Shown here: positions 1 to 20,673 of the stretch, in pieces
How positions within the stretch are numbered: position 1 is the stretch's first letter
How the letters are laid out: the number at the start of each line of letters is the position of its first letter
From: an uncultured Bdellovibrionales bacterium
GTDB lineage: Bacteria > Bdellovibrionota_C > UBA2361 > SZUA-149 > CALKYB01
Reading direction: 5' to 3'
Length of the DNA: 64,000 nt
NCBI GenBank assembly: GCA_964510575.1
Contig: CAZECN010000005.1
Coordinates: forward strand, 18,518-82,517
Notes under the pieces: model-generated
The model's database searches: none
What the model saw: the letters and a program-made list of their open reading frames with translations, nothing else
What the model was told of the DNA's origin: nothing
Position numbers and translations under genes: made by a program

Positions 1-935
1 ACTCCAGTCCTTTAGATTTACTTCAAGAGTTAGTTGCCCTTTATTCCGAGTTTAGAAGAGAGGGAAGAATAAGAGAAGGTCGGGTAATATGTGTTACTCA
101 TGCCAAAGGTGGTACTGGAGCTACTAGCCTGTGTGCCGCACTTGCCGAAGTTTGTAGCGTGCATCAAAGGCGAACCATGCTTTGGGACATGGATGTTGAA
201 ACTAGAGACCTATGCCGCTCTCTTACCGTTAATGGGGCAGAAGCTAAGGTAGTTAGTAGCTGGGTCAACGGTACACGAGATATTTCAAGAGATAGTATTT
301 GTGATGCATTAATCCCGGTAAGTCAGGATGTTTCAGTACTAATGCCTCCTGATAGTATGGCGGAGTCTATGGATTTTGTTTGCCACACTGATGGGATGGC
401 AATTTGTCAAAGACTGCTCGACCTCGCTAGAGCCATGCATGATGTTATCATAATTGATACTGGTGGTAGAATAGGACCTGCCACAGGAGCTCTGATGAGA
501 GTTGCCGATGAGGTTTTAATAGTTATTGATGATACAGTATTAGGTCTAACTGCTTTGGATCTATTCTTAAGTTATGCGAAAGCCTTGGTGGTAGGACCAG
601 ATAGAATTAGTTTTGTGGTTAATGGTTATAGCGGCTCTTTACTAGCAGTTCCTCAGATTGAAGCTGAATTAGAGCCAGTGCATCAGCTTGGTCCTAGACC
701 TTGGAGATTGCCTCCAGTGCCAGTTGATCCTAAAGCATCTCTTTGGCCAGGAAGTGGAAGGACTCTATATAGTATGGGCTCGAAAGGTACTCGAGCCGCT
801 CTTGAGGAAGTTGCCGCAGAGTTAGGGCTGATTTCAAGCGAAGGGTATGAAGTTTCTGGGGACAAAAAGAACTCCAGCTGGTGGGAGAGACTTATTCCTC
901 AAAAAGAGTCCGACGAAATGGGAGTCGAAGACTAG
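1..935 (+). CDS. cpaE: Tad pilus ParA/MinD-like ATPase TadZ/CpaE (5' end outside window)
   Basis: The frame of ORF 159..935 stays open back to position 3. The extra in-frame residues read ...GRVICVTHAKGGTGATSLCAALAEV, a deviant Walker A (KGGxGxT/S) of ParA/MinD-type TadZ/CpaE. IIIDTGGR and VLIVIDDT motifs follow. The gene is adjacent to flp/cpaB/cpaF. The ORF-track start at 159 (GTG) is internal. Confidence 0.75.
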   Translation, partial: SSPLDLLQELVALYSEFRREGRIREGRVICVTHAKGGTGATSLCAALAEVCSVHQRRTMLWDMDVETRDLCRSLTVNGAEAKVVSSWVNGTRDISRDSICDALIPVSQDVSVLMPPDSMAESMDFVCHTDGMAICQRLLDLARAMHDVIIIDTGGRIGPATGALMRVADEVLIVIDDTVLGLTALDLFLSYAKALVVGPDRISFVVNGYSGSLLAVPQIEAELEPVHQLGPRPWRLPPVPVDPKASLWPGSGRTLYSMGSKGTRAALEEVAAELGLISSEGYEVSGDKKNSSWWERLIPQKESDEMGVED

Positions 936-1073
936 AACTGCGTTTAGGGCTCTTGAATCCGATGTCTTATTGCCTAAAATTCTTAAAATCGCTGAAAGAT
1001 GAAAAAACTACATGATTTTAGTAGCGAAAGGTGTTTTTTAGGGTACATGTTACTGGTTTTAGAAAAGCCAAGT

Positions 1074-1089
1074 TGGCCCGGATTATGCA
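1074..1089 (+). promoter_or_regulatory. Possible sigma-54 (-24/-12) promoter upstream of flp
   Basis: TGGCCCGGATTATGCA has GG-N10-GC spacing identical to the TGGCAC-N5-TTGCA consensus, with two mismatches. It lies about 160 nt upstream of the flp ATG. No enhancer-binding protein gene is seen in the window. Confidence 0.25.
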
Positions 1090-1247
1090 TAGTAGTAAGT
1101 AGTTACTATTCCACTGGATTTTAACTGCTCCTCCAAGGAAGCTTGTAGATAGGTTTAAATTTTGGGGGTTTAACAACAATTTAGTTGTATGTATGTTTAA
1201 CAAGACCCTGAGAATAAAGGGTTTATTTTAGGAACGGGAGTTATAAA

Positions 1248-1433
1248 ATGGAAAAAGAAATGAATAACGTAGAAATTCAAAGAGAAGAAAATGAGAAAGG
1301 CGCTTCTATGCTTGAGTATTGCCTTCTTGCTGCATTGATTTCAGTTGTAGCTATTACTGCCATGACTTTTCTTGGTCAGGAAGTTTCGGAAACTTTTAGT
1401 AATGTCGCCAGTACTATCGACACTACAAACTAA
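1248..1433 (+). CDS. flp: Flp-family type IVb pilin precursor
   Basis: 61 aa. The leader ends ...NEKG followed by ASMLEYCLLAALISVVAITAM. This is the Flp motif: G/A cleavage site, Glu5-Tyr6 of the mature pilin, then a hydrophobic helix. A good GGAG-type RBS (gggag) is upstream. Confidence 0.85.
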   Translation: MEKEMNNVEIQREENEKGASMLEYCLLAALISVVAITAMTFLGQEVSETFSNVASTIDTTN

Positions 1434-1462
1434 TTATTTTTTAAATAATTTTGGAAAAATAG

Positions 1463-1490
1463 AAAAGGGAGATCTTATCTCCCTTTTTTT
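1463..1490 (+). terminator. Rho-independent terminator after flp
   Basis: AAAAGGGAGAT-CTT-ATCTCCCTTTT hairpin followed by a T-run (1484-1490). Confidence 0.7.
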
Positions 1491-18887: not shown

Positions 18888-18900
18888 GAGCTCCCGGTAA

Positions 18901-19647
18901 GTGTCTGAAAAACGTTATCCAATTTCCGATTTAAAAAGAGAGAAGCTTCGTAAGGCAGGAGTTATTGCCTTGGGTAGAGAGCTAAGTGCTTTCGGGAGTG
19001 TTGTTTCCTTGGGATTGGTTTGTGGAGTTTTGTTGAGTAGTGGTTTGGTAGAGAGTGTTATAGAAATTTGGTCTGCGCTTGACCATGATGGTGTCTCGGT
19101 AGCTGTCGTTCTGCAAAAAAGCTTTTTATCAGCGACCAAAGTACTTTTCACATGCTTAACCATAGCTAGTTTTATTTATATTCTTGGGCACTTATTACAA
19201 AGCGGCTTTCTCTTCCAGCCAAGACTTCTGTTCTCAGGAGTCGCTGAGCGCCTTGGGTTTGGACGTCTTTTTAGCTTTAGCTTTACTGAAGGCCTATTTC
19301 TTTTGATTGCCTCTATCGTTTGGGCTGGAGTTAGCTATTTGACGGTAAATTTATTGCTGTATGAACTGAGTGAAATCAAACCAGATAGTTATTTTCAATT
19401 GGATCCCGTGGTATCCAAAGAAGTTTTAGCCGAACGTTTCGATTCTTTGATTGGACAGATTTTCCCGCTTGTATTTGGTGTTGTGGTTCTCGCGAGCTTT
19501 TTGTTTGGTGTCATTATTTTTTTGGTGAGGAAGATTGCTTTTGATGCCAAGCACATGATGACCAGGCAGGAGGTCGAGCAGGAGGCTAAGGAGTATGAAG
19601 TGGATCAAAACATGAAAAGAGCCCAGTATGAGCGGCGCAATTCATGA
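18901..19647 (+). CDS. sctU: SctU/FlhB family switch protein, membrane domain only (no NPTH autocleavage domain)
   Basis: N-terminus EKRYPISDLKREKLRKAGVIALGREL matches the FlhB/YscU N-terminus (EKTExPTxKKLxxARxxGQVxxSxEL). Four TM segments follow. The linker MMTRQEVEQEAKEYEVDQNMKRAQYERR aligns with M(S/T)KQEVKDExKExEGDPxxKxxxRQ and is then followed by a stop. Canonical proteins continue for more than 100 aa through NPTH. Confidence 0.8.
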   Translation: MSEKRYPISDLKREKLRKAGVIALGRELSAFGSVVSLGLVCGVLLSSGLVESVIEIWSALDHDGVSVAVVLQKSFLSATKVLFTCLTIASFIYILGHLLQSGFLFQPRLLFSGVAERLGFGRLFSFSFTEGLFLLIASIVWAGVSYLTVNLLLYELSEIKPDSYFQLDPVVSKEVLAERFDSLIGQIFPLVFGVVVLASFLFGVIIFLVRKIAFDAKHMMTRQEVEQEAKEYEVDQNMKRAQYERRNS

Positions 19648-19758
19648 ACTAGATGGTATTGAAGAAAAGGCCACTTTTTACTGGACTATTATAGTGTTAG
19701 GTTATGGCCTTGAGGATAGCTCAATTTTTGGCAATTTAGACTTAATTAAATAGGTCTT

Positions 19759-20265
19759 ATGGTGGATGGTAAAGATAAAATTGAATCTAAGCAGACCTTG
19801 CTAACGGGACGTAAGCGATCTGTAAAAGTTTCTAATAAGAGTGAAACCCATCGACCTGAATCATTGGTCAAATCAGCTCCCTCGGAAGAATCTCAAGTCG
19901 ATAATAATGAGTTAGCTCGGTCTGAATCTCGTGAGGTGGTTGAGAAAGCCCCTCAATCTGCTCCACCTGCTGAAAGTAAAGCTTCGGCGGAGCCTGATCT
20001 AGCGGTTCCGAGTGCAGAAACTAGTTTCAAACCATTAGAGTTTTCAAAGGGTCAACAAGTTCGGGAGTATTCTTCGGCTAGCCCTCTTTCCATCTTATTG
20101 CCAAGAATTGGAGATTTGCGGGCACTTTCTCAGAATGAGGCTTTTTTAAATAATGCAAGGGAGAGTTTGAAGGATAGTTCAGCTAGTCGGGATAGAAATC
20201 CAATTACGGAAAGGTCGATGATTCAACAAGTCTTAGATTGGCTATCTATGGGGGAGCGCCAGTAG
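19759..20265 (+). CDS. Hypothetical Ser/Glu/Pro-rich, mostly disordered protein (candidate T3SS substrate or regulator)
   Basis: 168 aa with no recognisable motif. Located between sctU and a TPR chaperone gene. Confidence 0.4.
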   Translation: MVDGKDKIESKQTLLTGRKRSVKVSNKSETHRPESLVKSAPSEESQVDNNELARSESREVVEKAPQSAPPAESKASAEPDLAVPSAETSFKPLEFSKGQQVREYSSASPLSILLPRIGDLRALSQNEAFLNNARESLKDSSASRDRNPITERSMIQQVLDWLSMGERQ

Positions 20266-20277
20266 CTACTGTATCAA

Positions 20278-20673
20278 ATGAATGTTTACCCTCCAGAACT
20301 TTTAAAATCGATGTACGAACTAGGTCGAATGTATTTTGAAATGGGGTATTTTGCTCCTGCTGAAAAAATATTTCAAGGACTAGTCGCTGTAGATAAAGGG
20401 GAGACTCCAGCTCGGGTAGGCTTAGGTCTGGTTAAGATTGAGAGAGGTTTTTATCAAGAAGCAGCGATGAATTTTAGAAGTGCGATTCAAAAAGGACAAT
20501 ACCAGGTGCAGGCTAAAATAGGGATGGCCTTTTCTTTTATTGCCCAGAATGAGTTGTCTAGAGCCAGATCGATGCTATCTCAGATTGAAAATGACCATGG
20601 CGATAAGATCATGGAGGATCAAGGTATTCGAATTCTTTTTGAAGCTGCCTATATCCGATGCGAAAAGGACTAG
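20278..20673 (+). CDS. TPR chaperone, CesD/SycD/LcrH (class II T3SS chaperone)-like
   Basis: 131 aa. MYELGRMYFEMGYFAPAEKIFQGLVAVDKGETPARVGLGLVKIERGFYQEAAMNFRSAI parallels the SycD/LcrH pattern (YxxAxxxYxxGxYxxAxxxFQxLxxLDxxxxxxxLGLGxxxQxxGxYxxA). Confidence 0.6.
   Translation: MNVYPPELLKSMYELGRMYFEMGYFAPAEKIFQGLVAVDKGETPARVGLGLVKIERGFYQEAAMNFRSAIQKGQYQVQAKIGMAFSFIAQNELSRARSMLSQIENDHGDKIMEDQGIRILFEAAYIRCEKD

Follow-up and report, generated by a model that had tools for sequence, protein, structure and literature searches.

Why do the genes of a Tad/Flp pilus run directly into those of a stripped-down type III secretion system (T3SS), and do the two halves form one system or only lie next to each other? 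This question is raised by a 64,000-nucleotide stretch of an uncultured Bdellovibrionales genome (assembly GCA_964510575.1, contig CAZECN010000005.1, positions 18,518 to 82,517), hereafter the window, in which positions 1-20673 are an unbroken gene run on the + strand. An earlier note on this DNA had described Tad genes, a 151-bp gap and then T3SS genes on the same strand, and our gene calls and coordinates agree with it. We put the probability at roughly 60% that this locus is one selected, phospho-regulated Tad/T3SS composite unit, not two neighbouring systems; it would start about 5.2 kb before the window and end at position 20673. Such a unit would have three parts. The first is a membrane-anchored Ser/Thr signalling set, in which a Hanks kinase and a PP2C phosphatase are joined by three to four FHA proteins and the transmembrane pseudokinase. 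The second is that half of a Tad/Flp machine which lies in the cytoplasm and inner membrane (TadZ, Flp, RcpC, TadA, TadB and TadC), and the third is an export gate of SctV, SctR, SctS, SctT and the SctU membrane domain, together with the SctJ ring, SctQ and SctO.

Conservation of the Tad-SctV linkage

About 80 cluster representatives are close to the SctV of the window (39-50% identity), and their metagenome-assembled genomes (MAGs) are named Bdellovibrionota, Bdellovibrionales, Oligoflexia or 'Deltaproteobacteria'. In 11 of the 11 clade lineages with readable context, tadB and tadC lie directly upstream of sctV and the pseudokinase gene directly downstream. The two halves are therefore truly joined, as the earlier note had proposed. 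The tadC-sctV gap varies from 17 to 282 bp across these lineages, and the order PP2C-FHA-Ser/Thr kinase-cpaE-flp-cpaB-cpaF usually precedes tadB-tadC-sctV-pseudokinase. SctV identity to the window in the clade loci falls from 83% (L004/L005) through 48% (L008), 45% (L003), 42% (L006), 39% (L095 and the P0074 locus), 37% (L096), 36% (L091) and 35% (L009) to 32% (L024). A profile search of genome contigs with the SctV clade alignment returned mostly ordinary FlhA/SctV, with the clade loci L008, L009 and L024 among the matches listed; the remaining FlhA/SctV matches provided the reference set for the trees described below. The FHIPEP genes outside the clade (L007, L092 and some 75 reference loci) have no Tad context. 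Genes outside the block vary between lineages, and therefore the linkage itself appears to be selected. It has been fixed in one block over a deep and populous uncultured lineage, with about 90 representatives of a family that carries a short SctU.

The locus was compared with its relative at 83% SctV identity. In all 17 locus genes compared, synonymous divergence (dS) is saturated (>1.8 or undefined) and nonsynonymous divergence (dN) is 0.05-0.45, a range that matches the adjacent housekeeping genes (RNase PH 0.14, Ham1 0.33). All of these genes are under purifying selection and are maintained, not decaying. The earlier note had reached the same view from gene coupling, and the 4 bp (ATGA) shared by the sctQ stop and the sctR start were read directly. 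With every open reading frame (ORF) intact past synonymous saturation and dN far below dS, the locus is most improbably a decaying, functionless relic of an injectisome or flagellar export apparatus, even though many canonical parts are missing, SctU is truncated, and SctT and SctS have diverged strongly. Also against decay are the recurrence of this reduced set, with one shared SctU end-point, across about 90 family representatives, the non-flagellar placement of SctV and SctR in trees and the lack of rod, hook and FliF genes nearby. A pseudogenised relic was rejected on the selection evidence.

The linkage has persisted even where SctV identity is down to 32%, synonymous sites are saturated and the outer flanks change, and SctV stays beside tadC even where most T3SS genes are gone. 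Each half is also without its own outer-membrane parts, and one signalling set brackets both, with PP2C and the Ser/Thr kinase upstream of the Tad genes and FHA proteins and the pseudokinase in the T3SS half. These points make it improbable that two independent systems merely stand side by side and share their order by common descent in one lineage, an explanation that could draw on the 151-bp tadC-sctV gap, on the resemblance of each half to parts of known stand-alone systems and on the carriers seemingly all belonging to one broad uncultured group.

The two halves of the unit are not equally conserved. Between the window and L003, identity is 81% for CpaE and 72% for CpaF, against 45% for SctV, 38% for SctQ and 34% for SctJ. 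Tad proteins are thus much better conserved than T3SS proteins, the exception being a 75-aa ORF at 66%, which is the best-conserved protein of the T3SS half.

A reduced export gate with a shortened SctU

The SctU of the window ends just past the MTRQEVEQEAKEYEVDQNMKR segment, and its NPTH autocleavage/substrate-switch domain is absent. The earlier note was right to list sctU, and it had not noticed that only the N-terminal membrane domain and linker are there. A 51%-identical homolog stops at the same point of the linker. With the short SctU as query, an exhaustive HMMER search recovered 101 relatives, and 92 of the 100 other than the query are 200-300 aa long (median 258); the short relatives end at the same linker without NPxH, and full-length proteins number only six and come last in the list. 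Truncation of SctU is a trait of the family. A word-indexed search recovers one SctU relative and five pseudokinase relatives because both proteins diverge too fast, and a metagenome-contig search with the pseudokinase alignment found one 2-kb fragment.

The absence of other parts was assessed over the window, the 8.7 kb upstream of it and the related loci. Scans of all window ORFs of at least 400 aa revealed no ATPase and no secretin, and tblastn with EscN and FliI-like queries gave no match in the window, in the upstream 8.7 kb or in 10 related loci. No SctN/FliI, SctL, SctK, secretin, needle, rod, ruler, gatekeeper or translocator was found in the window and locus. The Secretin domain is absent from the Pfam tables of all related loci, and a ring-forming SctD was found neither in the window nor in the related loci, the FHA proteins having no periplasmic part. 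The earlier note's list of parts missing from the window (SctN, SctL, secretin, ring-forming SctD, needle and others) is confirmed by these scans and by tblastn. A canonical sctN/L/C/D/F set, which that note had named as a finding that would refute it, is likewise not encoded just upstream, within 8.7 kb. SctN and the SctU C-terminal domain are thus lost from the locus across the family, which makes this the smallest T3SS core yet seen under selection, without ATPase, SctU C-terminal domain or SctD ring.

Ancestry of the export gate

In a neighbour-joining tree of 201 FHIPEP proteins, the Tad-linked SctV proteins (about 110 of the 201) form a clade with 100% bootstrap, and each of its two subclades also receives 100%. 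The clade stands apart from flagellar FlhA of Bdellovibrionaceae, Bacteriovoracaceae and Halobacteriovorax, and its sister in 92% of replicates is a group that holds injectisome SctV (Salmonella, E. albertii, Yersinia, Chlamydiales and rhizobia) together with Archangium. The SctR tree separates Tad-linked, Archangium/Bryobacterales and injectisome proteins from flagellar FliP with 100% bootstrap. Within the non-flagellar group the support for the position of the Tad-linked SctR is divided: 72% of replicates place it with injectisomes and 21% with the Myxococcales ('Myxo') variants, so that a sister relation to the latter is not supported, and the nearest SctR by distance is that of Archangium.

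The protein models agree with the trees. SctV scores higher against the NCBIfam hrcV model (511 bits) than against FlhA (482 bits), and its best solved relative is the 7alw chain 'Low calcium response protein' (372 bits, against 304 bits for FlhA). As judged from these comparisons, the export gate is of non-flagellar descent. This bears out the earlier description of an injectisome-type, not flagellar, system, for which the branching of SctV and SctR outside the flagellar clades and the TIGR02544 lipoprotein SctJ both speak. A flagellar origin was rejected on the SctV and SctR trees and on the SctJ-type lipoprotein ring, which is not FliF; no FliF, rod, hook or FliG genes occur in the window. 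A Chlamydia-like split injectisome, suggested by the FHA and kinase genes, was also considered and rejected, given the Bdellovibrionota-type relatives and the failure to find sctN/C/D/F nearby.

Phospho-signalling genes

Sequence upstream of position 1 was read from a 105.7-kb metagenome scaffold that carries the window region. It holds, in order towards the window, genes for a PP2C phosphatase with a tail anchor, a 358-aa protein whose FHA match is weak, a genuine Hanks Ser/Thr kinase with a C-terminal transmembrane (TM) segment, and cpaE; further upstream lie a hybrid histidine kinase and a response regulator.

Within the window, the gene after sctV encodes a protein whose N-terminal domain is kinase-like and whose C-terminal domain is HEAT-like, with a single TM segment. 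It is a pseudokinase, since the DFG Asp is missing and LGD replaces HRD, and it directly follows sctV in every related locus. FHA proteins are over-represented at the locus (the 358-aa protein with its weak match and the 463-aa and 373-aa proteins of Table 1). The kinase and FHA genes, treated as an insert in the earlier note, are conserved core members of the block. The 463-aa FHA protein was considered as a true SctD and rejected: it has no periplasmic domain, and its Yop-YscD_cpl match reflects the FHA fold only.

Two architectures and the role of SctV

The clade has two architectures. Subclade A, which includes the window, carries the T3SS half beyond SctV and the pseudokinase, and subclade B does not. 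In the three subclade B loci that are long enough (L009, L091 and L096), only SctV and the pseudokinase follow tadC; the L024 contig, also a clade locus, ends shortly past the pseudokinase. The genes after the pseudokinase are a thioredoxin-like gene, tig, clpP, clpX and lon in L009 (12135-22042) and L091 (7895-17720), and unrelated genes in L096 (12241-20752). Within subclade A, the genes after SctQ in L006 (19998-22292) encode a methyltransferase and, on the reverse strand, an 886-aa protein, with no SctR, SctS, SctT or SctU detected there by tblastn; L006 may be intermediate between the two architectures. SctV and the pseudokinase are the invariant partner of the Tad genes, singled out as the element that never leaves them.

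The charged FHIPEP residues of SctV are intact in both subclades. Every Tad-linked SctV has FVQGDA at about residue 146, where FVKGDA is otherwise near-universal, and KGSARV for KGSERV at about residue 207, in the FHIPEP region. In the sequences aligned, VQGDA and KGSARV are clade signatures at conserved charged positions.

Subclade B suggests the main rival to the composite unit, namely that the Tad machine has taken over SctV and the pseudokinase for a task other than secretion (as a proton-coupled energiser, as a scaffold for assembly or as a ring at which FHA/phospho-signalling docks), the other T3SS genes being accessory or in the course of loss. This would suit the subclade B loci, which keep only this pair beside Tad and then run into housekeeping genes (L009 and L091), the lack of SctRSTU after SctQ in L006, the invariance of this pair alone in the T3SS half, the far better conservation of the Tad proteins and the clade-specific change from VKGDA to VQGDA in a conserved charged motif. 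We nevertheless consider it unlikely. Subclade A keeps SctR, SctS, SctT and the N-terminal part of SctU, with SctJ, SctQ and SctO, under purifying selection and with translational coupling, and there are 92 short-SctU representatives of the family. Moreover, the FHIPEP residues needed for export have been retained in both subclades, and the channel genes of subclade B may lie elsewhere, or flagellar ones may be shared.

Gene content of the locus

Gene identities were assigned by Pfam and NCBIfam scans of the window ORFs (Table 1). The G+C content of the run is 41-44% and its GC skew is positive.

Table 1 Features of the Tad/T3SS locus, with positions in the window
Feature	Positions	Strand	Evidence or remark
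cpaE/tadZ 3' part (ParA/MinD-like localisation ATPase)	1..935	+	AAA_31 E=1.3e-11, full protein
flp prepilin, 61 aa	1248..1433	+	PF04964 E=4.7e-12; G/ASMLEY processing motif
cpaB/rcpC	1807..2739	+	PF16976 (RcpC) E=1.2e-21; N-terminal TM 14-45, periplasmic body
cpaF/tadA secretion ATPase	2822..4351	+	T2SSE E=1.1e-32, residues 238-419
tadB platform protein	4380..5399	+	T2SSF E=3.3e-12
tadC platform protein	5401..6324	+	T2SSF E=6.5e-7
tadC-sctV junction, 151 bp	6325..6475	.	read directly; kept in evolution
sctV export-gate protein	6476..8680	+	FHIPEP E=1e-165
bitopic pseudokinase, 881 aa	8735..11380	+	weak Pkinase and HEAT_2 matches; TM 386-417
tail-anchored multi-FHA protein, 463 aa	11402..12793	+	FHA E=1.5e-31; Yop-YscD_cpl E=1e-13; TM 434-463
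zinc ribbon, disordered linker and C-terminal FHA, 373 aa	13021..14142	+	UPF0547 zinc-ribbon and FHA matches
sctJ inner-membrane ring lipoprotein	14352..15275	+	TIGR02544 E=1.6e-28; YscJ_FliF E=6e-10
75-aa all-helical protein, fold family unassigned	15319..15546	+	conserved ORF between sctJ and sctO
sctO/fliJ-like coiled-coil stalk protein	15665..16141	+	FliJ E=5.7e-9; YscO E=1e-3
sctQ, SpoA/FliN_C domain	16156..17214	+	FliMN_C E=7.9e-12
sctR	17211..17888	+	FliP E=5.7e-50; top NCBIfam models EscR/YscR type
sctS	17889..18158	+	Bac_export_3 E=1.1e-5
probable sctT, highly divergent	18168..18887	+	between sctS and sctU; ~6 TM segments
sctU membrane domain and linker, 248 aa	18901..19647	+	Bac_export_2 E=3e-18, profile positions 2-235/335
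Ser/Glu/Pro-rich protein, 168 aa, probably disordered	19759..20265	+	without family match
small 3-TPR protein, 131 aa	20278..20673	+	TPR_19 E=7e-8; size as T3SS class II chaperones

The Tad set is complete for its six members TadZ, Flp, RcpC, TadA, TadB and TadC. The full CpaE/TadZ has 418 aa and starts upstream of the window (L088 8432-9688). Residues 1-237 of CpaF are of low complexity and gave no FHA match in the Pfam scan. An RcpA/CpaC secretin, a TadV/CpaA prepilin peptidase and TadE/F minor pilins were found neither in the window (1-64000) nor in the 8.7 kb upstream, and the earlier observation that the Tad module has no secretin or prepilin peptidase in the window therefore stands. A strong palindromic hairpin with T-runs lies at about 1463-1487, just after flp, and a GC-rich terminator-like hairpin at 2756-2771, between cpaB and cpaF, both of them possible attenuation points through which the stoichiometry of pilin is set. 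Promoter and terminator scans overall gave counts at chance level, and the terminator scan found no terminator-like site in the tadC-sctV junction.

In the T3SS half, SctJ has a signal peptide ending in Cys and a C-terminal TM segment at 251-280, and its true start is likely the methionine of MKVYLL... The FliG_N-like ORF proposed earlier, which is the small helical protein after sctJ, finds no support for that assignment. The call of sctT was sound in position and topology, and hhalign against five FliR/SctT sequences gives a weak match over 179 collinear columns (E=0.016); no Pfam or NCBIfam match was obtained for this candidate. The SycD/LcrH-like chaperone of the earlier note is indeed a small TPR protein, but its class II likeness is weak and no better than generic TPR, since PcrH (E=4e-4) and SycD (E=7e-3) both stand amid generic TPR matches. 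Two homologs of this protein flank SctV in a Bryobacterales T3SS-like locus (L012). The disordered 168-aa protein has a 172-aa counterpart at the same place in L094.

Neighbouring DNA and other loci

The window from 21 to 64 kb is housekeeping DNA (RNase PH, BipA, MetH, lipopolysaccharide heptosyltransferases and others). Just past the locus lie two sigma-70-like genes, at 21455-22333 on the - strand (weak Sigma70_r2) and 22745-23524 on the + strand (Sigma70_r4 E=1.6e-10), both in the same places in the 83% relative L094; they may be dedicated regulators of the locus. The Rfam scan of the window found one tRNA only (27948-28021, 66.6 bits), overlapping the 5' end of ORF 27991-28599 (DUF1232 and DnaJ), which probably starts further downstream. 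A 1317-aa protein (51660-55613, - strand) has only faint matches to NHL and Sortilin/BNR-type repeats. It could be a large beta-propeller protein, surface-located or secreted, and no connection with the locus was established.

Some other loci deserve mention. A separate FHIPEP group (P0102-P0120; L007 10001-12172 and L092 10001-12154) lies alone directly after lexA; the genes that follow are for ABC transporters or for NeuB/glycosyltransferase, and the nearest 10 kb hold no other T3SS gene. In the Bryobacterales (Acidobacteriota) MAG, the T3SS-like cluster of L012 (229-1626, 9524-13066) includes an SctQ-like ORF with an apparent FHA-like N-terminal part. In an Archangium T3SS locus (L010 7238-7516), a separate 92-aa ORF after the full-length SctU resembles the FlhB/SctU C-terminal domain alone.

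Proposed mechanism

How might such a unit work? In the mechanism that we propose for the composite unit, the two halves would be physically associated, and the kinase/phosphatase/FHA module would trigger their local assembly upon a contact signal. The gate would then pass unfolded cargo over the inner membrane into the periplasm, energised solely by the proton-motive force (PMF) through SctV, with SctO helping. The disordered 168-aa protein is a possible cargo, and the TPR protein could act as its chaperone. The Tad pilus, with its secretin and prepilin peptidase encoded elsewhere, would carry or push the cargo outward, perhaps in predation or another form of cell contact. The missing SctU C-terminal domain fits a machine without an early/late substrate switch, because no needle is built. 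The option raised earlier of a T3SS core depending on the neighbouring Tad machine is the one that the evidence favours.

More tentatively, the locus may encode an envelope machine of a hybrid and hitherto undescribed sort, with a T3SS-family gate built into the Tad inner-membrane platform without an ATPase, needle, secretin or switch of its own, one subclade keeping only SctV and the pseudokinase. If so, SctV would have a role in type IV filament machines that is independent of any injectisome or flagellar context.

Several points weigh against the composite unit and this mechanism. Subclade B, and partly L006, have no adjacent SctJ, SctO, SctQ, SctR, SctS, SctT or SctU and thus no visible channel beside SctV, which is hard to square with an export gate if the channel genes are not encoded at another site. 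The rest of the genome could equally encode SctN/SctL, a secretin or a full-length SctU. Neither system's outer-membrane component is at the locus, so the exit route is assumed. The SctV and SctR trees use neighbour-joining on simple distances. The host lifestyle is taken from the names of the relatives' MAGs, and not all Bdellovibrionota/Oligoflexia are predators. Finally, the closest known parallel is the experimentally established partnership of the Tad-like Kil machine with a needleless T3SS (T3SS*) in Myxococcus xanthus, which the earlier note overlooked; KilF, however, is marked by an N-terminal FHA domain, whereas the CpaF of the window has none.

Comparison with known systems

Flagellar export without FliH and FliI offers a precedent for a gate that has no ATPase; in the work of Minamino & Namba 2008 and Paul et al. 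2008, such export is reportedly driven by the PMF through FlhA, with FliJ assisting. The composite unit shares with it the gate FlhA/SctV, FliPQR/SctRST, the FlhB/SctU membrane domain and FliJ/SctO, reportedly enough for export powered by the PMF. It differs in that the ATPase is naturally absent from all loci examined, the SctU C-terminal domain is absent and the proteins are non-flagellar.

Like the canonical Tad systems (Caulobacter Cpa, Aggregatibacter Tad), the locus has well conserved TadZ, Flp, RcpC, TadA, TadB and TadC; unlike them, it has no RcpA/CpaC, TadD/RcpB, TadV or TadE/F/G. An FHIPEP gene is not known from any Tad locus described so far. The tad locus of B. bacteriovorus is also without a prepilin peptidase and has regulatory FHA/TPR genes nearby, but its Tad machine is dispersed and includes a TadZ-TadA fusion. 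The Bdellovibrio Flp pilin is processed by PilD, encoded elsewhere, when both are made in E. coli (bioRxiv 10.64898/2026.07.08.737194). A Hanks kinase, PP2C and FHA adaptors associated with a secretion machine are also known from the PpkA/PppA/Fha1 threonine-phosphorylation pathway in type VI secretion (T6SS) and from the chlamydial T3SS (FHA-bearing CdsD, PknD), and Seef et al. draw the same T6SS phosphorylation analogy for Kil (PMC8460266). In contrast to these cases, a different machine would be controlled here, and a transmembrane pseudokinase is always paired with SctV.

Among non-flagellar T3SSs, the 'Myxo' variants of Abby & Rocha 2012 resemble the locus in having no secretin and no needle, in lying on the non-flagellar side of the tree, in being conserved and in that Archangium has the nearest SctR by distance. 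The nine core non-flagellar genes of that study are SctC, J, N, Q, R, S, T, U and V; neither Myxo variant has lost the ATPase or the inner rod, and SctD is retained in the long one (PMC3459982). Here these are lost and SctU is short, unlike in the one Archangium locus examined, where SctU is full-length (351 aa with NPDH). The Myxococcales intermediate to which the earlier note had likened the locus is therefore a poor match, the Myxo variants keeping the ATPase while this locus has no SctN/SctL, has a short SctU, offers only tail-anchored FHA proteins where SctD would be and belongs to a separate clade.

Kil and T3SS* of M. xanthus are found together at the sites of contact with prey, and Kil recruits T3SS*; three of the four pilus tips need T3SS* for killing, and the authors propose that the Kil pilus replaces the missing needle in a manner like that of type II secretion (PMC12075869). 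Kil clusters are FHA-rich, and FHA proteins are suspected in contact signalling (PMC8460266). The locus described here likewise pairs a Tad/Flp-type machine with a non-flagellar T3SS that has no secretin, needle or translocon, with abundant FHA proteins and small TPR (LcrH-like) proteins. The two-step delivery proposed above, from the gate into the periplasm and then outward by the pilus, is also the model put forward for Kil and T3SS*. There are also clear differences. T3SS* comprises SctD, SctJ, SctI, SctQ, SctRSTUV, SctN and SctL (PMC10433427), of which SctN, SctL, SctD and SctI are absent here. A prepilin peptidase (KilA) and a short secretin (KilC) belong to the Kil clusters, and this locus encodes neither. 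Most strikingly, the Myxococcus genes occupy separate loci (mxan_3102-3108, mxan_4648-4661 and mxan_2434-2464), whereas here they form one block.

How Kil and T3SS* cooperate, and whether they form a single complex, is a stated open question (PMC12075869; PMC12428579); a 2025 review finds their co-occurrence apparently restricted to Cystobacterineae and notes that association in one complex remains to be shown (PMC12428579). Our literature search found no paper on an FHIPEP gene in a tad locus or on a T3SS in Bdellovibrionota tad loci. The Tad/T3SS partnership, previously known only from separate Myxococcus loci, is here one fused and more reduced block in another phylum-level lineage, which provides independent, purely genomic evidence that Tad and T3SS-derived parts have been selected to cooperate. 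It replaces a vague "functional interplay" by definite protein pairs that can be tested and bears on the exaptation of T3SS parts in evolution. If the hybrid machine exists, Kil and T3SS* would be a single case of a Tad-T3SS alliance that is older and more widespread, extending well beyond Cystobacterineae.

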